From assembly GCA_964642915.1 (NCBI GenBank), contig CAZXPE010000003.1, forward strand, positions 1-37,842: DNA of 37,842 bases. The letters run 5' to 3'. The DNA is from an uncultured bacterium (GTDB taxonomy: Bacteria > Methylomirabilota > Methylomirabilia > Rokubacteriales > CSP1-6). Below the pieces are notes generated by a model. The model saw only the letters and a list, made by a program, of their open reading frames with translations. It had not been told where the DNA came from and did no database searches. Positions 9,772 through 35,069 of this stretch are shown one piece after another (positions within the stretch are counted from its first letter, which is position 1; the number at the start of each line of letters is the position of its first letter). A program made the position numbers and the translations under genes.

Positions 9772-11484
9772 ATGGGCGACACCTTCCCGGCCGAGGAGTT
9801 CGAGGAGATTCTCAGGGAGTTCGGCAACGAGGCGGCGGAGATCGTTGCCAGCCTCGAGGAGGATATGGTCCGTCTCGAGGACGAGCCGGAAAACCTGGAG
9901 CTGCTCCATCGGATCTTCAGGGGGATGCACACCCTGAAGGGGAACTCGGCGTTCCTGGGCTTCTCCAGGATGAAGGCGCTTGCCCACGAGGCGGAAAACG
10001 TCTTGAACCGCCTTCGCAGCGGAACTCTGCCTCTGGTCCCATCCCTCATGGACGCCCTTCTCGTCGCGCTTGACGGGGTCAAGGCGCTTCTCAGGGATAT
10101 CGCTGCTGACCGGGCGGAGAGGACGGAGATCGACGGGACTGTTCTCCTGCTCCAGCGCGCGGCTGAGAGCGCTGAACGGGAGACGCCGGGGGAAAATGCG
10201 GAATGCGGAATACGCAATGCGGAAGCGGTGGACGGGCCGGAGGGACGCGCTGAAGGCGGGACGCGGAGCCCGGAGGAGGGGGCGCGCGGTGGAAATGCCG
10301 CCACGATCCGAGTGGAAGTGCGGCGTCTGGATCACCTGATGAACCTGGTGGGCGAGCTGGTGATCGGGAGGAACCGGCTGCACCAGGTGCGGGGAGACTT
10401 AGAGCGGAAGCATGAGGGGGATTCCCTGGTCGGAGAGCTGGGCCAGGTGTCGGCCGAGTTCTCCCTGGTCTCATCCGAGCTTCAGGAGGCGGTGATGAAG
10501 GTCCGGATGGTTCCTATCCGGAACATCTTCAGCCGCTTCCCGCGTCTGGTCCGCGACCTCGCGCGCGAGCGGGAGAAAGCCGTGGACCTGGTGACGAGCG
10601 GTCACGAAACGGAGCTGGACCGTTCGGTGATCGAGGAGATCTGGGACCCGCTCGTCCATCTCGTGCGGAACGCCCTCGATCACGGCCTGGAGTCCCCGCG
10701 CGAGCGGCGGGCCTCGGGGAAGCCCGAGAAGGGAAGAATATCCATGTCGGCCCGCCAGGAGGGCAGCCACATCGTGATCCGGGTTGAGGACGACGGGCGC
10801 GGGATTGACGCGAGCCGGGTTCTCGACAAGGCCAGACGCCTGGGGCTCGTGGATGCGGGCGACGACCTTTCAGGAGCCGAGATCCTGAACTTGATCTTCA
10901 CACCGGGCTTCTCCACCAAGGACGAGATCTCGGACATCTCAGGCAGGGGCGTGGGCCTGGACGTGGTGAAGACCAACCTCAAGAAGCTCAACGGCCTGAT
11001 TGACGTTTACACGGTTCCCGGCAAGGGGACCCGCTTTACCCTCCAGATTCCCCTGACCCTCGCCATCGTTCAGGCCCTCCTGGTCCGCGTGGACTCGGAG
11101 ACCGCCGCAATCCCTCTTGCATCGGTGGTGGAGACGGTGCGCCTCCTTCCCCGGGAGCTGCGCACCATCGGCGGGCGCCCGGTTCTTCGCCTCCGTGACA
11201 ATGTTCTTCCGCTGATATGGCTTCACGACCTCTTTCACAGGCCCCGCCCCGGGGACAGGCGTTTCTACGTGATCGTGGTGGGGCTTGCCGAGGAGCGGGT
11301 AGGGATCGCGGTGGACGGCCTCCTTGGCCAGCAGGAGGTGGTGGTGAAGTCAGTGGGGAACTACCTCGGAGAGATCCAGGGGCTCGCGGGAGCAACCATC
11401 CTCGGGGACGGCCGCGTCGTGGTGATTCTCGACATGGCCACACTCATGGGTGATTCGCGCCTCTGTCGGCACGTGAAGCGATGA
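9772..11484 (+). CDS. cheA: chemotaxis histidine kinase CheA (Hpt-dimer-HATPase-CheW domain; no P2)
   Basis: IFRGMHTLKG (phospho-His), LDHLMNLVGELVI, HLVRNALDHG, DDGRGID, IFTPGFST, SGRGVGLDVV, GATILGDG. Confidence 0.96.
   Translation: MGDTFPAEEFEEILREFGNEAAEIVASLEEDMVRLEDEPENLELLHRIFRGMHTLKGNSAFLGFSRMKALAHEAENVLNRLRSGTLPLVPSLMDALLVALDGVKALLRDIAADRAERTEIDGTVLLLQRAAESAERETPGENAECGIRNAEAVDGPEGRAEGGTRSPEEGARGGNAATIRVEVRRLDHLMNLVGELVIGRNRLHQVRGDLERKHEGDSLVGELGQVSAEFSLVSSELQEAVMKVRMVPIRNIFSRFPRLVRDLAREREKAVDLVTSGHETELDRSVIEEIWDPLVHLVRNALDHGLESPRERRASGKPEKGRISMSARQEGSHIVIRVEDDGRGIDASRVLDKARRLGLVDAGDDLSGAEILNLIFTPGFSTKDEISDISGRGVGLDVVKTNLKKLNGLIDVYTVPGKGTRFTLQIPLTLAIVQALLVRVDSETAAIPLASVVETVRLLPRELRTIGGRPVLRLRDNVLPLIWLHDLFHRPRPGDRRFYVIVVGLAEERVGIAVDGLLGQQEVVVKSVGNYLGEIQGLAGATILGDGRVVVILDMATLMGDSRLCRHVKR
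10194..10228 (+). repeat. 7-bp tandem array (GAATGCG family) in the cheA linker
   Basis: AAATGCG GAATGCG GAATACG CAATGCG GAAGCGG, translated as ENAECGIRNAE. Confidence 0.85.
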
Positions 11485-12587
11485 CCGGCGACATGAACGT
11501 GGAGCGCGGAATGCGGAATGCGGAATGGAGGAGGGCCGGACGGGAGAAGCGCGACAGCGGCAAGATCGTTCGGGCTCTCGTGATAGACGATTCGGCCTTC
11601 ATGCGGAAGGCGCTCACTATCATGCTCGAATCGGATCCCGGGATCCAGGTGGTGGCCACAGCCAGGGATGGAGAGGAAGGTATCGCCAAGCTCACAGCTC
11701 ATCATCCCGACGTGGTGACCCTGGACATCGAGATGCCGCGGATGGCCGGGCTCGCCACGCTGGAGTGGATCATGAAGGAGCATCCGGTGCCTGTCCTGAT
11801 GGTCAGCTCCCAGACCCGGGATGGCGCCGAGATCACGCTTCGGGCCCTGGAGCTGGGGGCGGCGGACTTTGTCGCCAAAACTCCCGGCGGCGGTTTGGAC
11901 ATCCTCCAGATCCAGGAGGAGGTAGTAAGAAAAGCCCTCGCAGTCGCCTTCCACTGGAAACGGCGCGTCGCTGCTCCTCTCCCGGCGGCACCGCCACCCG
12001 CCGTCGGCCGGCGGAGTCGCCGGGTGGACATCGTCGCTGTCGGCTCCTCCACCGGAGGACCCCAGGCGCTCCAGGCGCTCTGCTCGAGCCTCCCCTCCGA
12101 CTTTCCGTGCGGGCTTCTGGTGGTCCAGCATATGCCTCCGGCCTTCACGGGGCCGCTGGCTCAGCGGCTCAACGGCCTCTCTCCTCTGATGGTCCTGGAA
12201 GCTTCTCAAGGGACTCTCGTGGAAGCTGGCACGGTCCTCGTGGCCCCCGGAGGGAGCCACATGTTGCTCAGGCGCCACGGCCTTGAAGTGCGGGTCGAAC
12301 TATCCGAAGAGCCGCGCGATCTGCCCCATCGTCCCTCGGTGGACGTGATGTTCACTTCCGCGGCCCAGGTTTTCGGGGGCCGGAGCCTCGGGGTCATCCT
12401 CACCGGAATGGGCAACGACGGCCTCCAGGGGTGCCGGGCCATCAGGGCGGCGGGGGGGCGAGTTCTGGCTCAGGACGAGGAAAGCTCGGTCGTGTACGGA
12501 ATGCCCCGGGCCGTCGCCGAGGCAGACCTGGCCGATCAGATCGTGCCGCTCGCGGCCATTCCAGAAACGATCGTCTCGAGTCTGTAA
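11481..12587 (+). CDS. cheB: chemotaxis methylesterase CheB (REC + methylesterase)
   Basis: IDDSAFMR, VTLDIEMP; catalytic GSSTGGP, VQHMP, ILTGMGNDG, VVYGMP. Start is uncertain because of a repeat-derived N-terminal extension. Confidence 0.95.
   Translation: MTGDMNVERGMRNAEWRRAGREKRDSGKIVRALVIDDSAFMRKALTIMLESDPGIQVVATARDGEEGIAKLTAHHPDVVTLDIEMPRMAGLATLEWIMKEHPVPVLMVSSQTRDGAEITLRALELGAADFVAKTPGGGLDILQIQEEVVRKALAVAFHWKRRVAAPLPAAPPPAVGRRSRRVDIVAVGSSTGGPQALQALCSSLPSDFPCGLLVVQHMPPAFTGPLAQRLNGLSPLMVLEASQGTLVEAGTVLVAPGGSHMLLRRHGLEVRVELSEEPRDLPHRPSVDVMFTSAAQVFGGRSLGVILTGMGNDGLQGCRAIRAAGGRVLAQDEESSVVYGMPRAVAEADLADQIVPLAAIPETIVSSL
11495..11529 (+). repeat. 7-bp tandem array (GAATGCG family) at the cheB 5' end
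   Basis: GAACGTG GAGCGCG GAATGCG GAATGCG GAATGGA, translated as NVERGMRNAEW. Confidence 0.85.
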
Positions 12588-12591
12588 GCTA

Positions 12592-13962
12592 ATGCGAGCC
12601 CCTAACCCCGGATCCCGAGCCCCGAAGAGAGAAAGGCTCACGGTAAAGCGAGGAGAGGCATCTGCTCATCTCGCCCTCGTGGCCGACGCCTTTCACGCCT
12701 TCACTTCGGCCAGCCAGAATCTTCAATCGAGCTACGGCGCCCTCCGGGAGCGCGTCCGGATGCTCAAGGCCGAGCTGGCCGAGGCCAACCGTCGCCTTTC
12801 GACGAGCCGGGAAGAGGGGGAGAGGATGCGCCAATACTTGGAAAACGCCCTGGAGGAAATCGGGAAGGGCGTGGTGGTGGTTGACGGGGACGAGCGGATA
12901 ACGGTGTTCAACCGGGCGGCCGAGATTCTGACCGGGTACACCCGGGACGAAGTCCAGGGCCAACCAATTCACAATTTCCTCAGCCTCTCCTATTCCGCAC
13001 TTCGCACTCCGCATTCCGCATTGGTTCCAGATGTCGCGAAGCTTCTGAGATCGAGCGGGGAGTGGCGGGAGGTTGATTGGTCAGCTTCCCCGATTCGGGA
13101 CCCCGACGGAGCTTTCCGGGGCGCCGTGGTCCTCCTGGAGGACCTGGCCGAAAAGCGGCGGGGCGACGAGGCGCGGGAGCGGACCAAGACGTTCTCGGCG
13201 CTCGGGGAGATGTCGGTGACCATCGCTCACGAGATCAGGAACCCCCTGGGGGCCATGGAGCTGTTCGCGAGCCTCCTGATGGAGGAGTTTCGCGGCGACG
13301 CGCGGAAGGCGGAGCTGGTCGAAAGTCTCATGCACGGAGTCCACACCCTGAACGCCATCGTCTCTAACCTTCTCTTCTTCGCGCGCCCCATGCATCCACT
13401 CCTGGAGCCCGTGGATCTCCACGAGGCGATCGACGAGGCGTTGGGGTTCGCCATCCACGCCGTGCGGCAGAAGCGGATTGCCCTCGAAAAGGTCTACTGC
13501 GGCGAACCCCTCACCGTGCGGGGAGACCGGGAGCAGCTCAAGCAGGTGTTCCTGAACCTCCTCCTGAATGCCGTCCAGGCAATGGACGAAGGCGGCCGCC
13601 TCGCGATTCAGACTCGCCGCGGGAGCCGCTCGAAGGACGGGCAGGCAGATGCGGAATGCGGAATGGGGAATGAAGAGGTCGCGGAGGTCAGCGTCGCGGA
13701 TTCCGGCCAGGGGATTCCCGCTGAGCTCCTGACCAGGATCTTCGATCCCTTCTTTACCACCAAGCCGAAAGGCACCGGGCTGGGGCTGGCCATCGTCCAG
13801 CGGATCCTGGACCAGCACGGCGCCGCGATCAGCGTTTCTTCGAAGCAGGGGAAAGGCACAACGTTTGTTCTTTCGTTCTCTCATCACGCGGTCGGGTCCT
13901 CTCCCGAGGCGCGGTCCGCCTCCGGGGGATGCCTGGCCGCAGCACGGAGGATTCCACGATGA
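12592..13962 (+). CDS. cytoplasmic PAS histidine kinase, FleS/FlrB-like
   Basis: N-terminal AFHAFTSASQNLQSSYGALRERV coiled coil resembles FleS/FlrB; PAS (GVVVVD...FNRAAE); H-box AHEIRNPL; QVFLNLLLNA, DSGQGI, FFTTKPKGTGLGL; no TM segment. Confidence 0.9.
   Translation: MRAPNPGSRAPKRERLTVKRGEASAHLALVADAFHAFTSASQNLQSSYGALRERVRMLKAELAEANRRLSTSREEGERMRQYLENALEEIGKGVVVVDGDERITVFNRAAEILTGYTRDEVQGQPIHNFLSLSYSALRTPHSALVPDVAKLLRSSGEWREVDWSASPIRDPDGAFRGAVVLLEDLAEKRRGDEARERTKTFSALGEMSVTIAHEIRNPLGAMELFASLLMEEFRGDARKAELVESLMHGVHTLNAIVSNLLFFARPMHPLLEPVDLHEAIDEALGFAIHAVRQKRIALEKVYCGEPLTVRGDREQLKQVFLNLLLNAVQAMDEGGRLAIQTRRGSRSKDGQADAECGMGNEEVAEVSVADSGQGIPAELLTRIFDPFFTTKPKGTGLGLAIVQRILDQHGAAISVSSKQGKGTTFVLSFSHHAVGSSPEARSASGGCLAAARRIPR
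12595..12625 (+). repeat. 7-bp tandem array (CGGACCC-like family) at the kinase 5' end
   Basis: CGAGCCC CTAACCC CGGATCC CGAGCCC CGA, translated as RAPNPGSRAP. Confidence 0.7.
12992..13022 (+). repeat. 7-bp tandem array (ATTCCGC family) inside the PAS domain
   Basis: ATTCCGC ACTTCGC ACTCCGC ATTCCGC ATT, translated as YSALRTPHSAL. Confidence 0.85.
13647..13674 (+). repeat. 7-bp tandem array (GAATGCG family) in a HATPase loop
   Basis: AGATGCG GAATGCG GAATGGG GAATGAA, translated as DAECGMGNE. Confidence 0.8.
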
Positions 13963-15296
13963 GCCGGACAGTGCTGGTGATCGACGATGAGCCTATGATG
14001 CGGAAGTCGCTGGCCGAAACTATCCGCCGGCGCGGGGTCGAGGTTTCGGTCGCATGCGACGGAGAGGACGGGCTCAGGCAGTTCAAGGCCACGCCTGCCT
14101 CTCTGGTGTTCTGCGACGTCCGCATGCCCAGGATGGACGGGCTGGAGTTCCTCCGCACGGCGAAGACGGTGGCCCCAGGGACCCACGTCGTGATGATCAC
14201 GGCCTTCGGTTCCGTGGAGACCGCCGTGGAAGCGATGAAGGAGGGGGCTGACGATTTTCTCATGAAACCATTCTCGGCGGACCGGGTCGAAGAGATCCTG
14301 AACAGGGCCCTGGCGGGACTGGGGCGGGTCGAGCCAAGCTCAGACTCGGGGATCATCACTCAGGATCCGCACCTCAAGGCGATTCTCGTCACTGCCGAGC
14401 GGGTTGCGTCCACCGAGGCGACGGTCCTGGTTCAGGGCGAGAGCGGAACGGGCAAGGAGCTTCTGGCTCGCGCCCTTCACAGGTGGAGTCGCCGGCACGA
14501 AGGGCCGTTCGTTCCGGTGAACTGCGCCGCGCTTCCCGAGGCGCTGCTCGAATCCGAGCTGTTCGGCCACGAAAAGGGCTCGTTCACAGGCGCCATAGCC
14601 AGAAGGATCGGACGGTTTGAAGCGGCCCACCGCGGCACGCTACTCCTGGACGAGATCAGCGAGATCCCGCTTGCGCTTCAGGCCAAGCTTCTCCGGGTGC
14701 TCCAGGAGCACGAGGTAGACCGGGTCGGCGCGAGCCACGCGGTAAAGGTGAATGTGCGTGTCATCGCGACCACGAACCGGCCGCTTCGCCAGGAGCTGGC
14801 AGAGGGGCGCTTCAGGCAGGACCTCTTCTACCGTCTGAACGTGATCCAGTTCCAGCTTCCGTCTCTCAGAGAGCGCGCAGGGGACGTGATGCTGCTCGCC
14901 GAGCACTTCCTTTCCCAGTACGCCGGGCTCCACGGAAGCCCCGTTAGAGGAATCTCGCCGGAGGCGCGTGATCTTATCGAGGGTTACCACTGGCCCGGCA
15001 ACGTCCGCGAGCTGGAGAACGCCATCCAGCGGGCGGTGATTCTCTGCCAGGAGCAGGAGCTCCGCCCGCGACACCTGTCGCTTGAAGGAAGCCAGACCCG
15101 CGAGCCGCTGTCCATGGTCGGGCGGCCGTTCGCCGAGATGGAGCGGGAGTTCATTCTCGAGACCCTCCGCCAGGTCGGCGACAACAGAACGAAGGCCGCA
15201 AAGGTCCTGGGACTTTCGGTCCGGACGATCCGGAACAAGCTTCGCGAGTACCGGACCCTGGCGAATGTGGCATGCGGAGCGCGGAACGCTGAGTGA
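13959..15296 (+). CDS. sigma-54-dependent response regulator, FleR/FlrC-like
   Basis: REC (VIDDE, FCDVRMP, LMKPF), GESGTGKE, ESELFGHEKGSFTGA, LLLDEI, WPGNVRELEN, HTH NRTKAAKVLGLSVRTIRNKL; ATG 13959 overlaps the kinase stop (ATGA) with a GGAGG SD. Confidence 0.93.
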   Translation: MSRTVLVIDDEPMMRKSLAETIRRRGVEVSVACDGEDGLRQFKATPASLVFCDVRMPRMDGLEFLRTAKTVAPGTHVVMITAFGSVETAVEAMKEGADDFLMKPFSADRVEEILNRALAGLGRVEPSSDSGIITQDPHLKAILVTAERVASTEATVLVQGESGTGKELLARALHRWSRRHEGPFVPVNCAALPEALLESELFGHEKGSFTGAIARRIGRFEAAHRGTLLLDEISEIPLALQAKLLRVLQEHEVDRVGASHAVKVNVRVIATTNRPLRQELAEGRFRQDLFYRLNVIQFQLPSLRERAGDVMLLAEHFLSQYAGLHGSPVRGISPEARDLIEGYHWPGNVRELENAIQRAVILCQEQELRPRHLSLEGSQTREPLSMVGRPFAEMEREFILETLRQVGDNRTKAAKVLGLSVRTIRNKLREYRTLANVACGARNAE

Positions 15297-15307
15297 AGGA
15301 TGCGGAA
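15263..15307 (+). repeat. 7-bp tandem array (GAATGCG family) across the regulator stop codon
   Basis: GAATGTG GCATGCG GAGCGCG GAACGCT GAGTGAA GGATGCG GAA, translated as NVACGARNAE-stop. Confidence 0.75.
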
Positions 15308-15317
15308 AAATTTTCCG
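15303..15317. promoter_or_regulatory. candidate enhancer palindrome upstream of the flgB promoter
   Basis: CGGAAAA-A-TTTTCCG is a perfect dyad centred about 73 bp upstream of the -24 GG. Confidence 0.55.
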
Positions 15318-15380
15318 TCCCTGGCCGCCTCCGCGCCTGCCAGGGCTTGGTTTGACGGGAGTTTGGGAGGGGCGACACGG

Positions 15381-15815: not shown

Positions 15816-15816
15816 T

Positions 15817-16248: not shown

Positions 16249-16547
16249 GCGATTTGCGGGTTACGGGGATCGGGGGTCGAGGATCGGGGCTTGACGGCAT
16301 CCCGGACCCCGGACCCCGGACCCCGGCCAAGAGTTTTATTGAAACCTTGAAGGAATCCATCGAGCAGGTCAATCAGCTCCAGAAGAGCGCCGAGGAAGCG
16401 GCGCAGAATCTCGCCCTGGGGAAGGAGAAGGACGTCGCCCAGACGCTCGTCGCGATCGAGAAGGCCAATGTCTCCTTCCAGCTCATGATGCAGGTGAGGA
16501 ACAAGATTCTTGACGCGTATCAGGAAATCATGCGCATGTCCGTGTAA
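16245..16547 (+). CDS. fliE: flagellar hook-basal body protein FliE
   Basis: SFIETLKESIEQVN, EKANVSFQLMMQVRNKILDAYQEIMRM. Confidence 0.95.
   Translation: MSDLRVTGIGGRGSGLDGIPDPGPRTPAKSFIETLKESIEQVNQLQKSAEEAAQNLALGKEKDVAQTLVAIEKANVSFQLMMQVRNKILDAYQEIMRMSV
16253..16328. repeat. inverted pair of 7-bp tandem arrays in the fliE 5' region
   Basis: G-rich TTTGCGG GTTACGG GGATCGG GGGTCGA GGATCGG GGCTTGA, then C-rich (CCCGGAC)x3 CCCGGCC at 16301-16328. Confidence 0.85.
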
Positions 16548-16559: not shown

Positions 16560-18188
16560 ATGAATGAGTTGATTCAGCGGTACTGGCGGCAAGGATTGAC
16601 CCACTGGGGCGCGCTCTCCAGGATCCAGCAGGCGCTTGCGCTGGCCGCGGGCGGATCGGTCGTTGCCGCGCTTTTCGTGGCCGGCCTGTGGGCTTCGCGG
16701 CCGAACTACGGCACGCTCTTCGCCAACCTGAACTCAGAGGATTCGACCGCCATCCAGGAGCAGCTCAAGGCCCTCAAGGTTCCGTACCGCGTTGAGGGAA
16801 CGGGACAGCTTCTGGTGCCTGCCTCTCAAGTTCACGAGCTTCGCCTCAAGATCGCCGGCCAGGGGCTTCCCTCGGGCGGCGGAGTGGGGTTTGAGGTCTT
16901 CGACAAATCGAGCTTCGGCTTCACCGATTTCACCCAGCGGCTCAATTACCAGAGGGCACTTCAGGGAGAGCTTTCCAGAACTATCGGGCAGCTCAGGGCG
17001 GTGAGCCAGGCCAGGGTGCACCTGGCGCTCCCCCAGCCGACGCTCTTCAGCGACCGCGAGAAGCCGGCGACGGCCTCCGTGGTCCTCCGCCTCAAGCCCG
17101 GCGCCTCTCTCACGAACCAGGAGGTGCGCGGCGTGGTCCACCTCGTGGCCTCCAGCGTGGAAGGGCTCTCCGCCGACAAGATCACCGTGGTGGACACCAA
17201 CGGGAGAATTCTTTCCCAGGGCGGGGAGCGGGGAGCGTCCCAGCTCTCAGCCCAGCAGATCGAGACCCAGGCGATGTTGGAGGCGGACCTCGAGCGCCGG
17301 GTGACCACCATGCTGGAATCGGTCCTGGGGCCGGGGAAAGCGACGGTGCGCGTAGCTGCCAAGCTCTCGTTCGACCAGGTGGAGCGGACGGAGGAGCGTT
17401 TCGATCCGAACACGGTGGTCCGGCAGGAGCAACGCACCACGGAAAGCTCCAGCGGAGTCACGACGGCGCCGATCGGGACGCCCGGCGTGGCGTCCAACGT
17501 AGCGACGCCTCAGGGCGGCACAAGCACCATCAACAACAAGACCGGACGAGAGACAGAGGTGGTGAACTACGAGGTCGGGAAGACCGTGGAGCGGAAGGTC
17601 ATCGCTCCAGGGGAGATTGTGCGGCTGTCTGTCGCAGTCTTGATCGACAGCCCCTCCCGCCAGGGTGGGGCCGGCGCCGAAGCCGAAAGTCAGGAGCCGG
17701 CCGGCCGGAGCCAGGAAGAGATGGACAAGATCAGGCGTCTCGTGGTGTCGGCTGTCGGGTTCAACGCCGCTCGCGGCGACGATGTCCAGGTTGTTGAGCT
17801 GCCGTACGACACGTCGGCGGCCGAGCGCGAGCGGGCGGAGTCAGAGCGGGCGCGGCACGAGTCGCAGGCGAACCAGCGGAACGTCTGGGTTGGGGCTGCT
17901 GTGGCGGTGGTCGTCATGCTCCTCCTGATCGCGGTGTTCAGGGCTCTCCGCCGTCGCCGCCTGGCGACGGCCCTTAGCGAGGCCGGTTACAGCTCCGGAC
18001 CGGCTGTGAGCATCGAGGCCGCCAGGGCCGCGGTGGACGAGGCCCACACCCAGGAGATGCTCGAGCTCGAAGGGAAGCGCAAGGAGGAGCTTCGCCAGAA
18101 GGCCCTCGCCTTCGCGTACCAGAAGCCGGAAGAGGTGGCCCAGCTCCTGCGCGCCTGGATGCTCAAGCGAAAGGCGTCCACGACATGA
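16560..18188 (+). CDS. fliF: flagellar MS-ring protein FliF
   Basis: Two TMs; GVGFEVFDKSSFGFTDF, YQRALQGELSRTI, ARVHLALP, LVASSVEGL, RLSVAVLID, AVGFNAARGD, C-terminal PEEVAQLLRAWM. Confidence 0.96.
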   Translation: MNELIQRYWRQGLTHWGALSRIQQALALAAGGSVVAALFVAGLWASRPNYGTLFANLNSEDSTAIQEQLKALKVPYRVEGTGQLLVPASQVHELRLKIAGQGLPSGGGVGFEVFDKSSFGFTDFTQRLNYQRALQGELSRTIGQLRAVSQARVHLALPQPTLFSDREKPATASVVLRLKPGASLTNQEVRGVVHLVASSVEGLSADKITVVDTNGRILSQGGERGASQLSAQQIETQAMLEADLERRVTTMLESVLGPGKATVRVAAKLSFDQVERTEERFDPNTVVRQEQRTTESSSGVTTAPIGTPGVASNVATPQGGTSTINNKTGRETEVVNYEVGKTVERKVIAPGEIVRLSVAVLIDSPSRQGGAGAEAESQEPAGRSQEEMDKIRRLVVSAVGFNAARGDDVQVVELPYDTSAAERERAESERARHESQANQRNVWVGAAVAVVVMLLLIAVFRALRRRRLATALSEAGYSSGPAVSIEAARAAVDEAHTQEMLELEGKRKEELRQKALAFAYQKPEEVAQLLRAWMLKRKASTT

Positions 18189-21382: not shown

Positions 21383-21841
21383 ATGCGGTTTCGGTTCTCT
21401 CTTGAGACCCTGTTCCGTCATCGCCGCCGTCTGGAAGACGACGCCGTGGAGCGGCTGGCCCAGGCGCAGCGAAGGATGGCTGAGGAGGAGGCAACGCTCC
21501 AGCGACTTCGGGCCCTCGAAGCGTGGGGGGAGCAGGAGCTCTCATCGGTGCAGACCGGCCAAAGGTCGGGCTGGGAGCTGTCGGCCACGCAGGAGTATCT
21601 GGCGAGAGTCCGAGAGGAGATCCGCCGCTCCGGGGAGCGGCTCTCTGAGCGGGGCGCTCAATTCGAGACGGTGAGAACCGAGCTGCTGGAGCGGCGCAAG
21701 GGGCGCCGGGTCGTGGAGGTCCTCCGCGACAAGAGCCAGCAGGAGTATGTGCGGGAAACGGAGCGCATAGAGGGGCGCCAGTTGGACGAGGCGGCATCCA
21801 ACCAGTTCATCCGCCGGGGTGGAGAACGCCGTGTTCAGTAG
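21383..21841 (+). CDS. fliJ: flagellar export protein FliJ
   Basis: MRFRFSLETL N-terminus, coiled coil, E...LDE C-terminus, position after fliI. Confidence 0.9.
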   Translation: MRFRFSLETLFRHRRRLEDDAVERLAQAQRRMAEEEATLQRLRALEAWGEQELSSVQTGQRSGWELSATQEYLARVREEIRRSGERLSERGAQFETVRTELLERRKGRRVVEVLRDKSQQEYVRETERIEGRQLDEAASNQFIRRGGERRVQ

Positions 21842-22358
21842 AAAACTCTGGATCGCGTTCGGCTTCATCTTCTCCGGAATGGTGATGGTCTTCCTTGTCG
21901 TCACCGGGGTCTTTCGCGAGGGGATCTGGCCCAGGGTTAAGCCGGCTGCTGAGCGGGCGTTGGCGAAATGGCGGAGCCAGCCGGAGGCCGGCGCCAAGCG
22001 GCCGGCCACCGCGGAGCGGAGGCAGAGGACCGGAGCCGGCAACCGGCTTCAGGCGTCCGGCAGCGGGTCAGCGGCGGCGGAAGCCGGGGCCCTGACCGGG
22101 AGCAAGGCTGATTCGCAACAGAGAGCGCGGGGCGCTGAGCGGGGCGAGGAGCAGCAGGACGATCGGGCGCGGCTGGGGCGGCTTTACACCGGGATGCGCC
22201 CGCGGGAGGCGGCTTCGATTGTCGAGAAGCTTGAGCCTTCGCTGGCGGCCCAAATACTGGTCCGATTGCCGGATAGACAGGCGGCGAAGATCCTCGGCTC
22301 AATGGATCCCGAGATCGCGGCCCGCCTGACTCGAGGAATGACGAGAGGAGGGTCATGA
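21819..22358 (+). CDS. YlxF/MotE/FlbB-like flagellar protein (N-terminal TM, MgtE_N-like C-terminus)
   Basis: LGRLYTGMRPREAASIVEKL...AAKILGSMDPEIAARLT; typical position between fliJ and fliK. Confidence 0.8.
   Translation: MENAVFSRKLWIAFGFIFSGMVMVFLVVTGVFREGIWPRVKPAAERALAKWRSQPEAGAKRPATAERRQRTGAGNRLQASGSGSAAAEAGALTGSKADSQQRARGAERGEEQQDDRARLGRLYTGMRPREAASIVEKLEPSLAAQILVRLPDRQAAKILGSMDPEIAARLTRGMTRGGS
22018..22143 (+). repeat. degenerate 7-bp periodic tracts in the linker of the YlxF-like gene
   Basis: GGAGCCG GCAACCG GCTTCAG GCGTCCG GCAGCGG (22032-22066) and GAGCGCG GGGCGCT GAGCGGG (22123-22143). Confidence 0.4.
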
Positions 22359-23617
22359 CCTTTCCGCTCTTCCTTCTCATGCCCGCGCTCCGCTTGGTCG
22401 GCGGGTTCGTTCAATCGCTCACTCAGAGCCGGCCGGCCGACGCCCCGGTTAGTATCGTCGGAGGCGGTTCGCCCTCGGTGGAGTTCCAGCCGATGCTCCA
22501 GCAGATAATCGGGGCCCAGATGATCGCCCAGGGGGCCACTCAAGCGCTCCCTCAAGCGCCGGGGTCGTTGGGGTCATCGCTTGAGAGCGATTCCTCGTCT
22601 ACTCCGGCCTTCACTCTCCCGGCTCACTCCGCATTCCGCGCTCCACACTCCGCATTTGGCATTCCCCATTCCGCATTCCCCACTGCGCCGGTGGATGCGC
22701 GCATCGCTCCCGTCGTCGAGGTGGGGTCCATGGCCCTCGGCGTGGCGGATCCTCAAAGGCCAGCGATGGAGATCGGGTCCCAGCCGGCTCATCCCTCGTT
22801 TGCCGGCGCTGCCGCCACTCTTCAGTCTCAACCCGAGCCTTTCGCTCTCTCTTCGGCATTAATTGCTCAGCATCGCGCGTTTGCTTCTCTCCAGGCCGGG
22901 AGGCCAGGCGATGCCCCGCCTGTCGAGATCACAGGGCCGCTCTCCTCTGCGGTGGACCCGTTGTCACTGTACGAAGCCAGCCTCTTGGTCGAGCCGATCG
23001 ATCCGGCGGGTCGGACCGCCCGGAGCGGAGTGGCTGAGATCGGAGGGCCGGGGGAGGACGGAAGGGTCGGTCACCTTACGCCGGCGGCCTGGCAGGAGCC
23101 ATTCGCCTTGAGGCCTGACGGAATCGCGAGCCTCGGCCTGTCTTTATCAGCCGATCATGCGGCTCCCAAGGACGTGTCGGCGTCCCCTGCGCCTCAGCCG
23201 GCCGTGGAGCTGCCGCGCCTGGTCGACCAGCTTGCCGGCTCGGTGCGGGTGAGTTGGGAGAGCGGCAGGTCAGAGGCCCGGTTCTCGCTCGTCCCTCCTG
23301 ACCTGGGAACAGTTCGAGTCCAGATGGTGATGGAGCACTCGTCGCTTTCCCTCACGTTCACGGCGGGAAGCGAGCACGCGCGCGGCCTGATTCAATCATC
23401 GCTCTCGGAGCTGAAGGAGAACCTGACCGGGCAGGGGATCGACGTCGGCCAGATGAGCGTGCTGGTGGACCTGGCCGGGCGCAACAGTGAGAGGAGCTTC
23501 AGCGCCTTTGATCTAAACGATGGCCGTCCCGAAGCGCCGCCGAGGGCGCCAGTGGTCCAGCCGGTGCTGGCTGAGCGCCTGGCCCCGGCGCTGTCGGGAC
23601 TGGACCTCTTTGCATGA
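22355..23617 (+). CDS. fliK: flagellar hook-length control protein FliK
   Basis: Long Pro/Ala/Ser-rich N-terminal part plus T3S4 domain (ARFSLVPPDLGTVRV...LKENLTGQGI); lies before flgD. Confidence 0.9.
   Translation: MTFPLFLLMPALRLVGGFVQSLTQSRPADAPVSIVGGGSPSVEFQPMLQQIIGAQMIAQGATQALPQAPGSLGSSLESDSSSTPAFTLPAHSAFRAPHSAFGIPHSAFPTAPVDARIAPVVEVGSMALGVADPQRPAMEIGSQPAHPSFAGAAATLQSQPEPFALSSALIAQHRAFASLQAGRPGDAPPVEITGPLSSAVDPLSLYEASLLVEPIDPAGRTARSGVAEIGGPGEDGRVGHLTPAAWQEPFALRPDGIASLGLSLSADHAAPKDVSASPAPQPAVELPRLVDQLAGSVRVSWESGRSEARFSLVPPDLGTVRVQMVMEHSSLSLTFTAGSEHARGLIQSSLSELKENLTGQGIDVGQMSVLVDLAGRNSERSFSAFDLNDGRPEAPPRAPVVQPVLAERLAPALSGLDLFA
22626..22688 (+). repeat. nine-unit 7-bp tandem array (ATTCCGC family) in fliK
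   Basis: ACTCCGC ATTCCGC GCTCCAC ACTCCGC ATTTGGC ATTCCCC ATTCCGC ATTCCCC ACTGCGC (63 nt), translated as [21 protein letters not shown]. Confidence 0.9.
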
Positions 23618-25578: not shown

Positions 25579-25788
25579 ATGATTGAGCTGCACCGGCTGA
25601 ACGGGTCGGCCATCGTCATAAACGCTGAGCTGGTAGAGAGCGTCGAGGCGACGCCCGACACGGTTATTACCCTCACCACCGGGCGGAGGATCCTTGTGAC
25701 CGAGACTCTCAGTTCCGTTATCGAGCTGGTGGTCGAGTACCGGCGAGCCGTTCTCCTTTCGCCGCTCGCCGCTGACCTCCGGCCATGA
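25579..25788 (+). CDS. flbD: flagellar FlbD/SwrD family protein
   Basis: MIELHRLNG...INAELVESVEATPDTVITLTTG...V.E; follows flgE. Confidence 0.92.
   Translation: MIELHRLNGSAIVINAELVESVEATPDTVITLTTGRRILVTETLSSVIELVVEYRRAVLLSPLAADLRP
25751..25785 (+). repeat. degenerate 7-bp periodic tract at the flbD 3' end
   Basis: TTCTCCT TTCGCCG CTCGCCG CTGACCT CCGGCCA, encoding the tail LLSPLAADLRP. Confidence 0.4.
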
Positions 25789-25795
25789 GGAGACA

Positions 25796-26323
25796 ATGAA
25801 TATGCCCAGCAAAGCGCCCTGGAGCCAAGCCGCCGTGCGCGATGCGCGTCCTTCTTCGCCGCCCTCCGAGGCGGCGCCCGCTCCGGCGCCGGCGCGGAAG
25901 GCGCCACAGTTGAAAATGGTCGCAGCGGTGGCGGGGATGGCCGTCCTGGCCCTTGCCCTGGTCCTGTTCGTCCTGAAACCGCTCCTTGTGCCCGGCGACG
26001 GCGCGGGGCCGAAAGCGGGCCCGAGCCGGACATTCACCCTCGGGACGGTAGTGGTCAACGTTGCCGAGACCGAGGGGCGGCGCTACCTCAAAGCCTCCGT
26101 GGAGCTTGGAATCAACGGAGGCCTCCATAAGGACCTGGAGACACGCAAGAGCCAGTTCGTTGACCTCCTGATCGCGATACTCTCCTCGAAGCCGCTGGTT
26201 GAGGTCACGTCCACCGAGGGGCGGGAGCGGATCAAGACTGAAATCCTGGACCGGATCAACGCCGAGCTTGGCGGGGGCGCTCGGGTCCAGCGGATTTTCT
26301 TCACCGAGTTCGTGGTTCAGTAA
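25796..26323 (+). CDS. fliL: flagellar basal body-associated protein FliL
   Basis: Single TM; VVNVAETEGRRYLK, EGRERIKTEILDRIN, IFFTEFVVQ. Confidence 0.93.
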   Translation: MNMPSKAPWSQAAVRDARPSSPPSEAAPAPAPARKAPQLKMVAAVAGMAVLALALVLFVLKPLLVPGDGAGPKAGPSRTFTLGTVVVNVAETEGRRYLKASVELGINGGLHKDLETRKSQFVDLLIAILSSKPLVEVTSTEGRERIKTEILDRINAELGGGARVQRIFFTEFVVQ

Positions 26324-28273: not shown

Positions 28274-28893
28274 TCCGCTCACTTCGCATTCCGCGCCCCG
28301 CATTCCGCATTTATCCGGCGCTCCTGCTCCTGCTTGTGGTCACGGCGGCGGGGGCGGCTCAGCCCGAATCAACGGGGCCATCCGGCTCCCGGCCTGAGTA
28401 CCTGGCCTACCAGCCGCCCCAGAGCGGCGGTGAGTCGGCGGGGTGGATCGCGGCGCGGCTCTTCTCTTCTCTGCTTCTCGTCGGCGGTCTCCTGGCAGGA
28501 GGGCTGTTCGTCTATCGGCGATGGATGGGGCGCGGCGCCATCGGGCAAAGGGCGGACCTCATCAGGGTGGTGTCGCGGAGTTACATCGGGCCCAAGGAGT
28601 CGCTATGTCTGGTGCGGGTGGGGAAAGAGCACCTCCTGGTAGGGGTGACGGGGAGCCAGATCTCTTTTCTCCACAGGTGGGAGGGAGCGGTTCCAATCGA
28701 GCCATCCGTCCAGGAAGGGTGGGGGGGCGGAGGCCGCGGCGGCGATGGAGGCGGGGTTTCCCGCCAGTTCGAGGCGAGCGCGAGCCGCTTGCGCCTGACC
28801 GGTCTCGAGTCATCAATCCGCGGCCACATTATGTCGCTCAAGGGGCACCTGGCTTCTCTCGGCCGCTCCTCCAAAGGGACCCGCGATGCGTAG
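28270..28893 (+). CDS. fliO: flagellar biosynthesis protein FliO/FliZ
   Basis: TM followed by [30 protein letters not shown]; lies between fliY and fliP. Confidence 0.88.
28281..28311 (+). repeat. 7-bp tandem array (ATTCCGC family) at the fliO 5' end
   Basis: ACTTCGC ATTCCGC GCCCCGC ATTCCGC ATT, translated as [10 protein letters not shown]. Confidence 0.82.
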
Positions 28894-29644: not shown

Positions 29645-29661
29645 ATCGGAGGGCAGCGCAG

Positions 29662-29931
29662 ATGAATCCGCAGATCGTTCTGGACCTGGGCCGTGAAGCG
29701 ATGCTGATGGTCCTGATGACATCGGGGCCGATCCTGGCGGCAAGCCTTCTGGTCGGACTCTTGATCTCGATCTTCCAGGCTGTGACCCAGGTGCACGAGA
29801 TGACACTCACATTCGTGCCGAAGATACTGGCGGTCTTCCTGACGCTGGTCATCTTCGCTCCATGGATGCTTCGCTTGATGGTGGGCTTTACCGGGACGAT
29901 ATTCTCCAACCTCCCGCTCTACGCGAGGTGA
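29662..29931 (+). CDS. fliQ: flagellar export gate protein FliQ
   Basis: GLLISIFQAVTQVHEMTLTFVPKI; ATG 29662 after GGAGGG. Confidence 0.96.
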   Translation: MNPQIVLDLGREAMLMVLMTSGPILAASLLVGLLISIFQAVTQVHEMTLTFVPKILAVFLTLVIFAPWMLRLMVGFTGTIFSNLPLYAR

Positions 29932-29938
29932 TCCGGGC

Positions 29939-30727: not shown

Positions 30728-31784
30728 CGACCGCGAGCGCACTGAAGCCCCAACAGCGCGCCGGCGCCAGGAAGCCCGGAGAAAAGGGCAGGTGGCGCGC
30801 AGCCAGGAGATCAACTCCGCGGTGATACTCCTGGCGTCGGTCGGCCTCTTTTATTTCCTCGGCGGCCCGTTCACCGGCCAGTTGATGAGCCTTCTCCGGA
30901 GCGGTCTGGCTTCTCTGCCGGCCGCTGAGCTGACGCAGGAAAACACCTACACGCTGCTCGTGGGGTGGGGGTGGCGCTTTCTGATCCTCATGGCGCCGTT
31001 TTTCTTCGGGCTCATGGTGGCGGGCGTGGCGGCCAATGCGCTTCAGGTCGGGTTCGTGATGAGCGAGGAAGCTCTCGCCCCGAAGTGGGAGCGGCTGAAC
31101 CCTGTCCGCGGGCTCGGCAATCTCCTGGGCCGCCGCGGCCTGGTGGAGATCGTCAAGTCTCCCCTGAAGCTCTTCCTGATCGGCGTGGTGGCCTACTTCA
31201 CGATCGCCCAGCGCGCCGAGGATCTCCTGCGCGTGGGGGGGATGCCGCCGGTCAGGGCCGTTTCTATCGTCTGGGAGGCCGCCTTCGCGCTCCTGGTCAG
31301 GGTTGCGATGTCGGTCTGCGTCCTCGGGCTCCTCGATTACCTCTATCAGCGGTGGGAACACGAGCGGTCGCTCCGCATGACGAAGGAGGAGGTCAAGGAC
31401 GAGCTTCGCCAATCGGAGGGCGACCCGCTGGTCAGGGCGCGGATCAGGAGCCTCCAGAAGCAGGCGGCTATGCGGCGGATGATGGCCGCAGTCCCGAAGG
31501 CCGACGTCGTGCTGACGAACCCGGTCCATCTGGCCGTGGCCCTCCGCTACGACGAGCGCGCCATGCGCGCCCCCAAGGTGGTGGCAAAGGGGCCGCGTCT
31601 CGTCGCCGAGCGGATCGTGGAGGCGGCGCGGCGGCACGGAGTTCCGATAGTCGAGAACAAGCCGCTGGCCCGCTCGCTCTACAAGCTCGTGGCAGTGGGT
31701 CAGGAGATCCCCGCGGCCCTCTACCGAGCGGTGGCGGAGATCCTGGCGTACGTTTATGCCCTCTCCGGGCGTCGGAGGCAATAA
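30717..31784 (+). CDS. flhB: flagellar export protein FlhB
   Basis: RTEAPTARR...ARRKGQV.RSQE, LRMTKEEVKDE.RQSEGDP, autocleavage loop TNPVH, APKVVAKG, LARSLY. Confidence 0.96.
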   Translation: MPFDDRERTEAPTARRRQEARRKGQVARSQEINSAVILLASVGLFYFLGGPFTGQLMSLLRSGLASLPAAELTQENTYTLLVGWGWRFLILMAPFFFGLMVAGVAANALQVGFVMSEEALAPKWERLNPVRGLGNLLGRRGLVEIVKSPLKLFLIGVVAYFTIAQRAEDLLRVGGMPPVRAVSIVWEAAFALLVRVAMSVCVLGLLDYLYQRWEHERSLRMTKEEVKDELRQSEGDPLVRARIRSLQKQAAMRRMMAAVPKADVVLTNPVHLAVALRYDERAMRAPKVVAKGPRLVAERIVEAARRHGVPIVENKPLARSLYKLVAVGQEIPAALYRAVAEILAYVYALSGRRRQ

Positions 31785-31785
31785 T

Positions 31786-33900: not shown

Positions 33901-33917
33901 AGGCCGGAGGGGACGCC

Positions 33918-35069
33918 GTGCACATCAAGCGTTTCGAAGGGGAGGACCTGGGCGAGGTGATGCGGCGCGTCAAGGAAGAGCTGGGCCGGGAAGCGGTCGT
34001 GCTCCACACCAAGCCGTTTCGCCGCGAGGGGATCCGGGGTCTCCTCAGACGTCAGGGCGTCGAGGTGCTCGCCGCCGTCGATCGTGACTCGGGGGATCCG
34101 AAATGCGGAGCGCAAAATGCGGAGCGCGAAATTCCGCATTCCGCATTCCCCATTCCGCATCCCCGATCCCAGAATCCCGATCTTTCGGCTGAGCTGGCGA
34201 GGATCAAGGAGATGCTGGAACGTCTCCTATCGCGCAGGCGCTTCGGCGCGGCCGGCAACCTCGAGGCCCCGTTCAGCGACCTCTACGAGGATCTCCTGCA
34301 GCGGGATGTTCTCGAGCCGCTTGCGTACGAGGCTGTCGCCGACTTGCGGGGATCTCACTCCGGCCTGAATCCTTCCTATGGGGAGCTTCAGGTAGCGGTC
34401 GGCGGCCGCCTCGGCGGGATGATGAGGAGCGTTGACCGGGCCGCGGGGCTGTTGAGCGGATCGGTGGTTGCGCTTGTGGGGCCCACAGGAGTCGGGAAGA
34501 CCACGACTCTGGCGAAGCTGGCGGCCCATCACAGGGTGGCCGCCGGAAGGAGCGTGGCGATTGTCTCGATCGACACCTACCGGATCGCGGCGATAGAGCA
34601 GCTCAAGAGATACGCAGACATCATCGGGGTCCCGTGCGAGGCGGCGTTGACCCCCGCCGACCTCGGCCGCGCCCTGGAGCGCTACCGTGACGCTGACTTC
34701 ATCTTCCTCGACACGACCGGCAGGAGCCCGCGGGACGGCCTCGGCATCGGGGAGATCAGGTCCTTCCTCTCCGTCGCCCGCAGGGAGCTTCTCTCCGCTG
34801 TAAGACCGATGGAGACTCACCTGGTGCTTTCCGTCACAGCCAAGGGGGACGACCTCCTCGAAACGGCGCGCCGCTTTGCTCCCCTTGAGCCGGACCGGCT
34901 GACCTTCACCAAAATCGACGAGACTCAGAGCTACGGCCATCTTCTCAACGTGAGCGTCCTCGCTGACCTTCCGGTGGCGTACCTCACCACCGGCCAGGAG
35001 GTGCCTGACGACATCGAGGAGGCCGGCCCGGAGAGGATCGCCCAGCTCGTCGTCTTCGGGGGCGCGTGA
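33918..35069 (+). CDS. flhF: SRP-family GTPase FlhF
   Basis: VKEELGREAVVL, GPTGVGKTTTLAKLAA, DTYRIAAIEQL, DTTGRS, TKIDE, GQEVPDDI. Confidence 0.95.
   Translation: MHIKRFEGEDLGEVMRRVKEELGREAVVLHTKPFRREGIRGLLRRQGVEVLAAVDRDSGDPKCGAQNAEREIPHSAFPIPHPRSQNPDLSAELARIKEMLERLLSRRRFGAAGNLEAPFSDLYEDLLQRDVLEPLAYEAVADLRGSHSGLNPSYGELQVAVGGRLGGMMRSVDRAAGLLSGSVVALVGPTGVGKTTTLAKLAAHHRVAAGRSVAIVSIDTYRIAAIEQLKRYADIIGVPCEAALTPADLGRALERYRDADFIFLDTTGRSPRDGLGIGEIRSFLSVARRELLSAVRPMETHLVLSVTAKGDDLLETARRFAPLEPDRLTFTKIDETQSYGHLLNVSVLADLPVAYLTTGQEVPDDIEEAGPERIAQLVVFGGA
34087..34182. repeat. inverted pair of 7-bp tandem arrays in the flhF B-domain
   Basis: ACTCGGG GGATCCG AAATGCG GAGCGCA AAATGCG GAGCGCG AA, then ATTCCGC ATTCCGC ATTCCCC ATTCCGC ATCCCCG ATCCCAG AATCCCG; translated as DSGDPKCGAQNAEREIPHSAFPIPHPRSQNPD. 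Confidence 0.9.

Follow-up and report, generated by a model that had tools for sequence, protein, structure and literature searches.

Why should unrelated chemotaxis and flagellar genes carry the same short tandem repeat within their reading frames, and how could it have arrived there? A first-pass annotation of the 37,842-nt stretch of DNA analyzed here (the window) described heptamer arrays read in frame in these genes, and Tandem Repeats Finder (TRF), a pattern scan, Pfam, and ORF translations all bear out this core observation. The periodicity lies at the DNA level, and the arrays add peptide segments to unrelated proteins, as had been proposed; on in-frame translation these peptides are of the ECGMRNA or IPHSAFR type.

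Arrays in the motility gene block

TRF returned 29 rows for the window, with period 7 in 11 (10195-10228, 11506-11527, 12992-13022, 13649-13672, 16264-16289, 16301-16326, 17221-17237, 22625-22688, 25759-25773, 28285-28311, and 34131-34160); a row of period 14 (34101-34132) corresponds to the second flhF arm. The heptamer ATTCCGC occurs 21 times against 7.23 expected, and 21 or more copies are seen in 0 of 100 shuffles. The host block (9772-35069, + strand) comprises cheA, cheB, a PAS kinase, a FleR-like activator, fliE through fliO, and flhF, as read from Pfam matches and the ORF list; the Pfam matches confirm the gene identities, and the open frames continue across the arrays. Zero arrays were found at positions 1-9771. 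The sites first listed in cheA, cheB, the kinase, the FleR-like gene, fliE, fliK, fliO, and flhF stand, except that the tract at 12595 is only weak. Two other tracts had already been called weaker, and neither is supported: that at 22018 has no period-7 TRF row, and that at 25751 comes to just 2.1 copies, at 25759.

The CheA array (10191-10228, + strand; about five GCGGAAT-type units) encodes amino acids (aa) 140-152 of 570, in the linker between the Hpt and dimerization domains. In CheB, three exact GCGGAAT units with degenerate flanks (11495-11535, + strand) fall in an N-terminal extension (aa 5-18); the receiver domain begins at aa 33, and the final in-frame start codon ahead of it is within the array. 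Two adjoining arrays in fliE (16264-16331, + strand), the first GGGGATC-like and the second 3.7 copies of CCCGGAC, encode residues ~7-29, N-terminal to the FliE domain. Since neither cheB nor fliE has a start codon between array and conserved domain, both arrays must be translated at least partly.

Within the PAS kinase, an array in ATTCCGC orientation (12991-13025, - strand) lies in a loop of the PAS domain (aa 134-144), a segment that is replaced, not conserved, in a 58%-identical orthologue. A GCGGAAT array (13644-13677, + strand) lies in a turn of the HATPase_c domain (aa 352-361), inside a 16-aa insertion relative to the orthologue in genome G022. The CheA array likewise sits in a 17-aa insertion, missing from orthologues of 71% and 44% identity. 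The weak CCCCGRA-like tract (12595-12640, + strand) was seen by eye, at the kinase N-terminus or 5′ of it, and was missed by TRF and by both threshold scans; the gene start was called 3′ of it, at 12679, and the G022 orthologue has no counterpart. The start codon assignment is uncertain for this N-terminal tract and for the ATTCCGC array at the FliO N-terminus (28283-28312, - strand; aa 4-15).

A degenerate GCGGAAT-like array (15263-15292, + strand), detected only after the threshold was lowered to 17/21, encodes the final residues of the FleR-like sigma-54 activator and reaches its stop codon, the HTH_8 domain ending at aa 441 of 455. The longest of the set is the FliK array (22623-22689, - strand), which is made of about nine degenerate ATTCCGC/ACTCCGC units and belongs to the N-terminal region of the protein (aa 89-111). 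The FlhF linker (aa 57-83) holds an inverted pair (34102-34167, no strand assigned) with arms of GCGGAGC/AAATGCGG at 34102-34123 and ATTCCGC at 34126-34167. Its predicted hairpin has an energy of -41.7 kcal/mol (z = -4.46), with equal stability in 0 of 200 shuffles. The G022 orthologue also bears arrays in this linker, but their units differ from those of the present genome (G000), a pattern as compatible with recurrent targeting or a function of the site as with neutral tolerance.

Array abundance and host genes across the genome

A scan of the whole 2.27-Mb genome and of three shuffles for periodic matches to GCGGAAT (threshold ≥18/21) gave 45 arrays, 7 of them in the window, against 0, 0, and 0 in the shuffles. 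Measured by lag-7 self-similarity, the genome has 36 arrays and triplet-shuffled sequence 0, so the arrays exceed what shuffled sequence yields. Control lags gave 12 versus 7 (lag 6), 1 versus 0 (lag 8), and 0 versus 0 (lag 9); the excess is peculiar to period 7, adjacent periods being near the controls. By our own grouping, the 56 arrays listed fall into the unit families GCGGAAT-like (31), CCCCGRA (13), GCTGA (8), and GAAGCTT (3). Typically an array has 4-7 degenerate units, alone or as an inverted pair able to form a hairpin, and gives an insert of 25-70 nt; the range of lengths is narrow (4-6.8 units at the 5th-95th percentile). Many arrays occur as inverted pairs whose units match, and two arrays lie at contig ends.

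The window is enriched ~7-fold (7 of 56 arrays versus 0.93 expected; Poisson, P = 5e-5). Restriction to chemotaxis and flagellar genes, as first suggested, is nevertheless too narrow: housekeeping genes across the genome are hosts as well, and all 20 further host ORFs (20/20), among them FtsZ, CarA/B, RibD, TruB, E2, ABC, CorA, and kinases, have real Pfam domains. According to a home-made gene caller, 32 of the 56 arrays are in protein-coding genes. They lie mostly in linkers, tails, and loops; in our reading of the domain tables ~21 of 29 are outside Pfam domain limits and 8 inside, 3 of these ~30-40 residues deep in a HATPase_c domain. Placement depends on stop codon content: stop-free units are found 31 times in coding sequence, 4 times at gene edges, and 10 times between genes, compared with 1, 1, and 9 for units in which one strand carries a stop (P = 2e-4, Fisher's test). 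Relative to the host gene, 11 arrays are in sense and 9 in antisense orientation, and this lack of strand bias favors an origin at the DNA level.

Variation among strains and distribution

Strain comparison relied on Logan contigs, a level at which rare single-unit variants are invisible; runs X4 and X5 come from study P2 and X7 from study P3. Differences of 21 nt occur at the kinase and fliK arrays: The X4 strain has an additional 21 nt (three units) at 13666 in the HATPase_c array, and 21 gap letters appear in an X7 contig aligned across the fliK array, where the X4 contigs end on both sides. In fliO, X4 has 75 other letters in place of 28278-28387, a 33-nt length change. All in-gene array differences seen, the two of 21 nt and that of 33 nt, keep the frame. 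The fliE and cheB arrays are retained: X4 covers the former without indels, with a single A>G difference at 16280 shared by X5, and X5 (~95% identical) covers the latter without gaps.

The host genome is a groundwater metagenome-assembled genome whose named relatives are Methylomirabilota. The GCGGAAT-type unit is patchy in the phylum (20 of 251 genomes) and, of the 158 other genomes in the same family, occurs in only 1. Beyond the phylum it is present in many phyla (at least eight others; at least 119 stretches) and in 66 viral stretches, including phage contigs; the host ORFs there, PurL among them, are real proteins too. The first-pass annotation had linked such arrays to four-helix-bundle genes, and this is true of other genomes. 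Five array-rich genomes from other phyla hold 30 TIGR02436 genes; 16 of these are bracketed by inverted heptamer arrays that share one unit, and a further 7 adjoin an array on a single flank.

Origin of the arrays

We consider it probable, at roughly 60%, that the arrays are an STRR-like family of dispersed heptamers that spreads by copying or by unit-specific amplification, is altered by slippage, and passes through a filter of selection. In this reading the array, single or as an inverted pair, is itself the element. New sites would be seeded by copying from existing arrays, through template switching or gene conversion, or alternatively by an amplification, specific to the unit, that starts from single copies present by chance. 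Slippage would afterward add and remove units, and selection would purge in-gene arrays that contain stops, have a length that is not a multiple of three, or lie at an intolerant site.

Slippage in situ at each site without copying, the dominant unit being exceptionally prone to slip on the host polymerase, has a small chance of being the whole explanation. A polymerase-footprint idea has been put forward to account for heptamers being in excess generally (Mrazek 2007, cited by PMC4692102 and PMC4679880), and runs of a single variant, such as GCGGAGT x3 (C9) and TCGGAAT x3 (C188), are local expansions. However, 8264 of the 16384 heptamers are stop-free on both strands, yet one unit family supplies 31 of the 56 arrays; independent slippage per site is inadequate for such sharing, as the first-pass annotation had argued. 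The near absence of the unit from the organism's own family, where the replication machinery should be similar, its recurrence with the same A/G variant in many phyla and phages, and the replacement of a whole segment in the X4 strain also count against it. We regard as unlikely that the arrays are contingency loci, with motility phase-varied by gain and loss of units in cheA, cheB, the kinase/regulator pair, fliE, fliK, fliO, and flhF. Seven is not a multiple of three, so one unit gained or lost would toggle the host gene; the motility block is enriched in arrays, copy number varies among strains, and Campylobacter flagellar regulators provide a precedent for phase variation through simple repeats. 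In addition, a 97%-identical FlhF from another metagenome is called only from residue 99, 3′ of the arrays, consistent with a frame break inside or close to the array, although a separate N-terminal FlhF fragment was looked for and not found. But the arrays are short and imperfect (70%-100% matches), which lowers slippage, the strain differences preserve the frame, and off-switching would be lethal in the essential FtsZ, CarA/B, RibD, and TruB genes, or in PurL elsewhere.

A role as functional nucleic acid elements is similarly doubtful. The arrays could on this account be RNA processing or stability stems, comparable to the intervening sequences cut by RNase III, or protein-binding sites, with regulatory in-gene copies that act, for example, in translation pausing at domain borders. 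The frequent matched-unit inverted pairs, the strong fold of the flhF pair, and the position of many arrays exactly at domain borders are consistent with such a role, as are the heptamer repeats at the RNase III site of the Coxiella intervening sequence (PMC4990558); the narrow array length could also reflect functional constraint instead of free slippage. Yet orientation is unbiased with respect to transcription (11 versus 9), most in-gene arrays are single arms, an Rfam search of the window gave no match, close strains differ by gain, loss, and replacement of arrays, and orthologues manage without them. The 16 TIGR02436 genes between inverted arrays and the 7 one-sided cases could point to a dedicated templated-addition system, in which a reverse transcriptase works with a partner of the Avd-like four-helix-bundle or GxxExxY kind, the writing machinery "encoded elsewhere" of the earlier proposal. 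We judge this very improbable: TIGR02436, TIGR04256, and RVT_1 are all without a match in the 76%-complete bin, and the bin's one Y1 transposase is flanked by a different inverted repeat of its own. Across genus g61, moreover, TIGR02436 copy number does not track the GCGGAAT array count (Spearman's correlation 0.05, P = 0.82), and the g61 genome that ranks second by hit count (20) has one weak match. Repeats do break assemblies, as at the two contig ends and where the X4 contigs stop at fliK, but an assembly or binning artifact is scarcely conceivable given the long frames open across arrays in 20 of 20 Pfam-verified genes, the arrays in X4, X5, and X7 runs from other studies, and similar arrays in hundreds of unrelated assemblies.

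Relation to known repeats

The STRR-like family that we favor is of one kind with cyanobacterial STRR and with the heptamer repeats of Xanthomonas, Nostoc, and Beggiatoa. It resembles STRR in its tandem 7-nt units, its several unit families per genome, and its dozens of dispersed copies. It differs in phylum, in units, and in that 32 of 56 arrays are in protein-coding genes and translated. In heterocystous cyanobacteria an STRR is reportedly tolerated inside a functional gene (RNase P); we know of no mechanism for STRR heptamers. According to one survey, heptamers are the most frequent long simple repeats, prefer about four units, and are mostly intergenic, although 32% of Nostoc heptamer repeats are intragenic (PMC4692102). 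GGGAATC of Xanthomonas and GGGGA(C/T)T of Nostoc, like the present units, have a G-rich core with A/T, and share with them about four units, paired inverted copies, overlap with stop codons, and length change between close relatives (PMC4692102). GCGGAAT has no G-tract, however, so a G-quadruplex explanation is inapplicable. TAACTGA, found in marine Beggiatoaceae, cyanobacteria, and Bacteroidetes, is likewise one heptamer that forms tandem sets at numerous sites; its spread across phyla is patchy, which suggests horizontal transfer by no known mechanism, and stop codon content dictates its placement (PMC4679880). It contains stops and is intergenic, just 5′ of start codons, whereas GCGGAAT is open on both strands and can enter genes. 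In TIGR02436/S23p cassettes and 23S rRNA intervening sequences, inverted heptamer arrays form a stem around a gene (16/30), and in Coxiella the number of GACAGAT repeats in the intervening sequence differs among strains (PMC4990558). Here the gene was not found in the bin, and the arrays stand alone in coding sequence.

Rickettsia palindromic elements, selfish repeats that insert in frame at tolerant surface sites of unrelated and even essential protein genes, are the nearest analogue as far as the consequences for proteins go. Those are units of 100-150 bp with a defined sequence in one genus; the insert here is a bare heptamer array of 25-70 nt, spread across phyla and phages. The repeat class itself is already known between genes, and here we see a coding-region form of it. 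The ECGMRNA- or IPHSAFR-type peptides would be by-products rather than a selected feature, and the most likely reason why the motility block is enriched is the tolerance of an accessory gene cluster with many linkers.

Heptamer arrays in the window

Eleven of the 29 rows that Tandem Repeats Finder returns for the window have a period of 7, lying in cheA, cheB, the kinase gene (two), fliE (two adjoining), fliK, fliO, and flhF; short rows of this period also lie at 17221 and 25759, and flhF has its other arm as a row of period 14. For the named genes these rows match the array positions of the first-pass annotation, among whose other tracts that at 12595 is present in weak form and those at 22018 and 25751 are unsupported. 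The tracts mostly have 3–5 units with 70%–100% matches, and no long perfect tract of the kind found in contingency loci occurs. ATTCCGC appears 21 times in the window against 7.2 expected (0 of 100 shuffles reached 21). Rfam has no matches in the window.

Pfam identifies the hosts as CheA, CheB, a PAS-HisKA-HATPase_c kinase, a sigma-54 activator, FliE, FliK, FliL, FliO, and FlhF, and finds an MgtE_N/FliG_M-like protein at 21819–22358. On in silico translation the arrays are read through, giving the ECGMRNA- or IPHSAFR-type peptides described at first reading. Pfam and translation together place the CheA array in the linker from Hpt (12–104) to the dimerisation domain (177–244). The FlhF array also occupies a linker, that of CheB forms an N-terminal extension, and those of FliE, FliK, and FliO lie in N-terminal regions; the sigma-54 activator carries its array in its last residues, and the kinase has one in a PAS loop and one in a turn within HATPase_c.

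The inserts are made of units only, and beyond an AAAT at the start and a loosely kept GAAGRGG at the end their flanks have nothing in common. Read in the GCGGAAT orientation, arrays of the source genome mostly start after AAAT and often finish in purine-rich GAAGRGG or GGAGG. The unit contains ATG, and arrays at 5′ gene ends, for example in cheB and at 1549–1588 of contig C102, could provide a ribosome-binding site and start codon. The inverted pair in flhF is predicted to form a hairpin of −41.7 kcal/mol (z = −4.46). Across 14369–15035 the summed contig depth is 1–2 orders of magnitude over neighboring bins in sequencing runs X4, X5, and X7, and about threefold in X1; we reject this as a copy-number signal, since the conserved sigma-54 AAA+ core attracts contigs of many other organisms.

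Genome-wide excess and placement

The source genome, G000, is a bin of 2.27 Mb in 266 contigs (64% G+C, 76% complete), of which the window is contig C3. A periodic GCGGAAT pattern finds 45 arrays in it, spread by our row count over 31 contigs, and none in three shuffles. The genome scan suggested in the first-pass annotation puts the arrays far above shuffled sequence: Self-similarity at lag 7 gives 36 arrays versus 0 after triplet shuffling, compared with 12 versus 7 at lag 6, 1 versus 0 at lag 8, and 0 versus 0 at lag 9. With a looser threshold there are 56 arrays in the genome and two in the shuffle. We grouped the 56 into 31 GCGGAAT-like, 13 CCCCGRA, eight GCTGA-type, three GAAGCTT, and one other; their median length is 5.1 units (5th–95th percentile, 4–6.8).

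An in-house gene caller, which predicts 2043 genes and 86.5% coding sequence, places 32 of the 56 arrays in coding sequences, five at gene edges, and 19 in intergenic DNA, which is still over-represented (34% of arrays versus 13.5% of bases). The window holds seven of the 56, all within 9772–35069 and none in 1–9771, versus 0.93 expected (P = 5 × 10^-5, Poisson). Although the window is enriched, the restriction to motility genes initially proposed does not hold, as arrays occur in housekeeping and other ORFs throughout the genome. In all 20 of the other host ORFs that we fetched, Pfam recognizes proper domains, and in the frame expected. The array is in the tail of RibD, a cytochrome bd-like protein, TsaE, and a molybdopterin oxidoreductase; in a linker of an ABC transporter (membrane domain to ATPase), CobQ, a fused methylase, E2 (lipoyl to E3-binding domain), and CarA; in the N-terminal region of FtsZ (as an extension), T2SSK, and FlgI; and at other or within-domain positions in TruB, a cytochrome c, CorA, a NuoG-like protein, a GATase, and CarB. 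By our reading, about 21 of 29 arrays are beyond Pfam domain limits. Two more kinases have an array within HATPase_c, ∼30–40 residues into the domain, at a depth similar to that in the window's kinase. Four unrelated histidine kinases carry an array at about this depth (window 13644–13677; contigs C58:6931–6974 and C82:6569–6606; fetched locus L081:7407–7446).

Placement differs strongly with the stop content of the unit (P = 2 × 10^-4, Fisher's test). Arrays of units open on both strands number 31 in coding sequences, four at gene edges, and 10 in intergenic DNA; where the unit has a stop on one strand, the numbers are one, one, and nine. This distribution is a sign of selection acting as a filter. 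Of all possible heptamers, half lack a stop on either strand, so openness alone fails to explain the choice of unit. Within genes, 11 arrays have their purine-rich strand as the coding strand and nine have it as the template, a balance that argues against selection on peptide or mRNA.

Comparison with orthologues and strains

Against orthologues 71% and 44% identical to it, CheA of G000 alone has a 17-aa insertion, with the array inside it, and none of 11 CheA loci of relatives has an array. Relative to a 58% orthologue in G022, a genome of another family, an insertion makes the HATPase_c turn of the kinase 16 aa longer, and a segment of its PAS loop is replaced. The array region of FlhF is a variable linker in all relatives. 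At the corresponding place in FlhF of G022 are a G-rich arm and a C-rich arm of other heptamers; the site is therefore common to both and the unit is not.

For the CheA encoded at 9772–11484, the closest match (71%) belongs to G022, the best in its own family being at most 46%, and FlhF was found in only seven of 61 relatives. The motility block looks accessory and is possibly a transferred cluster. An FlhF (P0001, on a 92-kb contig of another metagenome) that is 97% identical to the product of the window's flhF (33918–35069) is called only from Met-99, shortly after the arrays; a search for its N-terminal fragment found none, and that strain may have a break in the frame. A metagenome scan with the kinase yielded no close strain, generic kinase motifs dominating the patterns (best-segment identity at most 41%, top match 35%). 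Its background sample of 80 loci has seven period-7 arrays in 743 kb.

The strain comparison rests on assembled Logan contigs, in which the strain of X4 and X5 (both of study P2) is ∼95% identical to the window. In the X4 strain the kinase array is 21 nt longer, 108 nt of the fliO N-terminal segment correspond to 75 other letters, and in the intergenic tract ahead of fliL (25707–25801) 93 letters are skipped for 106 others. A contig of X7 (study P3) has 21 gap letters over the fliK array, at which the X4 contigs end; the fliE and cheB arrays are retained in the strain contigs. All length differences within genes are multiples of three: 21 nt, or three units, in the kinase and fliK, and a net 33 nt in fliO. 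Upstream of fliL the length change is no such multiple, consistent with a non-coding spacer and a fliL start near 25910. Low X4 cover in parts of cheA and cheB, and joints such as 10224 to 12992, are not rearrangements; these contigs come from other array loci.

Arrays in other genomes and phages

A 14-mer of two units is found in three of 61 relatives. Of the 251 genomes searched in the phylum, 20 contain an 18-mer; in the family of G000 it occurs in one of the 158 other genomes (two of 159 counting G000), and in another family in 12 of 21. A control pattern, the unit read backward, has 13 and 11 matches in genomes G104 and G119; these array-rich genomes thus hold the backward unit as arrays too, and the control is not neutral there.

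Across species (one genome per species, three units) we found at least 119 stretches, against a chance estimate of ours of about two. Those listed include Acidobacteriota, Verrucomicrobiota, Planctomycetota, Gemmatimonadota, Chloroflexota, Nitrospirota, and others. The loci usually have several arrays of other units each, often as inverted pairs. In these loci 62 of 163 arrays lie within an open frame that extends 60 residues or more to either side, compared with 28 of 43 in G000. Among the 10 longest frames of this kind, eight encode real proteins: PurL, a Methylomirabilis kinase (again in HATPase_c), Mfd, a U32 peptidase, a GH15 enzyme, HypF, a DUF11 protein, and a molybdopterin oxidoreductase.

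Viral contigs contain 66 stretches with the unit (loci L273–L338), and these loci have 223 period-7 arrays in 648 kb, about one per 2.9 kb. Five of 10 phage frames tested are phage proteins (terminase gpA, two portal proteins, a Mu transposase, and a Mu F-like protein), the array lying beside the domain rather than in it. Several array-rich viral contigs are Mu-like (Mu portal, Mu F, and Mu transposase).

Candidate mechanisms

The first-pass annotation had supposed a dispersal or templated-addition mechanism encoded elsewhere and had linked such arrays to four-helix-bundle genes. That link is borne out in other genomes: Five array-rich genomes have 2–12 TIGR02436 (four-helix-bundle) genes each, and of 30 such genes 16 stand between inverted arrays of one unit, seven have an array on one side, and seven have none. 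In genus g61 of the same phylum, 12 of whose 21 species have the unit, however, TIGR02436 copy number does not follow array count (rho = 0.05), and the 76%-complete bin has no match to TIGR02436, TIGR04256 (GxxExxY), or RVT_1 (reverse transcriptase). A dedicated writer is therefore not supported. RT/Avd-type templated systems have a reverse transcriptase and a four-helix-bundle gene, neither of which was found in this incomplete bin. A REP/RAYT reading does not fit, as the Y1 transposase is not flanked by heptamer arrays: The sole Y1_Tnp (IS200/RAYT-like) gene of the bin (C237:98–442; L272) has its own inverted repeat GGTGTCAGGRACC on both sides, a motif with three copies in the genome and unrelated to the arrays, and its contig has only a weak lag-7 tract (15/21) ∼1.3 kb downstream.

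Other conceivable causes would be CsrA-type recognition of GGA and a target site for a nickase or restriction enzyme, GAATGC spanning the unit junction. The missing strand bias speaks against an RNA-level role. Polymerase slippage is an idea cited for heptamers in PMC4692102 and PMC4679880.

Discussion

The arrays are a coding-region, cross-phylum variant of known dispersed heptamer repeats. They share with that class (STRR-like, long-SSR) both the tandem 7-nt excess and the presence of one unit at many unlinked sites, but the class is mainly intergenic, whereas 32 of 56 arrays here are in coding sequences. Strict STRR repeats have a heterocystous cyanobacterial host and STRR1–3 units, which differ from the heptamers here, and the named FlhF relatives in our data are Methylomirabilota. 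G-quadruplex-forming heptamers, as in Xanthomonas and Nostoc, would need at least four G-tracts per array, whereas GCGGAAT has no run of three G (such runs occur only in GGGGAAT variants) and so lacks the required tracts.

According to PMC4692102, repeats of GGGAATC in Xanthomonas and of GGGGAYT in Nostoc have a preferred length of four units and lie mostly between genes, with 32% intragenic in Nostoc. PMC4679880 describes TAACTGA repeats as patchy across phyla and restricted by their own stop codons, and cites Mrazek 2007 for a report that in most genomes heptamers outnumber all other long simple repeats. In PMC4990558 the Coxiella intervening sequence has heptamer repeats adjoining its S23p ORF. 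In the literature searched, which covers few subscription journals, we found no description of in-frame GCGGAAT arrays and nothing relevant on heptamer arrays with four-helix-bundle genes or in Planctomycetes, Verrucomicrobia, or Acidobacteria; PMC3315296 does not contain the terms heptanucleotide, 7-mer, or 7 bp, or either of two wordings for non-triplet units.

A few units are dispersed through the genome, filtered by stop content and site, read through in frame where they lie in genes, and changed by 21-nt steps or by replacement. Sites recur: Four kinases have arrays at one HATPase_c region, and two families have them in the FlhF linker, with a different unit in each. Arrays would also have to be seeded at new sites. 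In a more far-reaching and less likely reading, with a probability of about 0.3, one GCGGAAT/GCGGAGT array family would spread between phyla, possibly with Mu-like or other phages, would be amplified by a putative sequence-specific process, and would act as a general writer of new linkers, loops, N and C termini, and perhaps ribosome-binding-site/start-codon modules in bacterial and phage proteins.

Array-rich and array-free species in one genus, and ∼95%-identical strains differing at single arrays, are natural contrasts for finding the cause. The arrays are one reason why such genomes assemble poorly, and they carry a warning for annotation and homology searches, as peptides common to different proteins may be repeat-derived. 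Among the long simple repeats of prokaryotes, heptamers are the most common, and the stop-free units here are routinely built into proteins, essential and phage structural ones among them, so that 7-residue-periodic peptides recur in unrelated proteins across phyla. Like Rickettsia palindromic elements, the arrays of G000 lie in frame in unrelated protein genes and are absent from orthologues, although those elements have a defined consensus, with unique sequence and palindromic ends, and the inserts here have units only. The arrays are a concrete source of lineage-specific linkers and loops and, if that spread between phyla is true, would be a cross-phylum counterpart of the Rickettsia elements.
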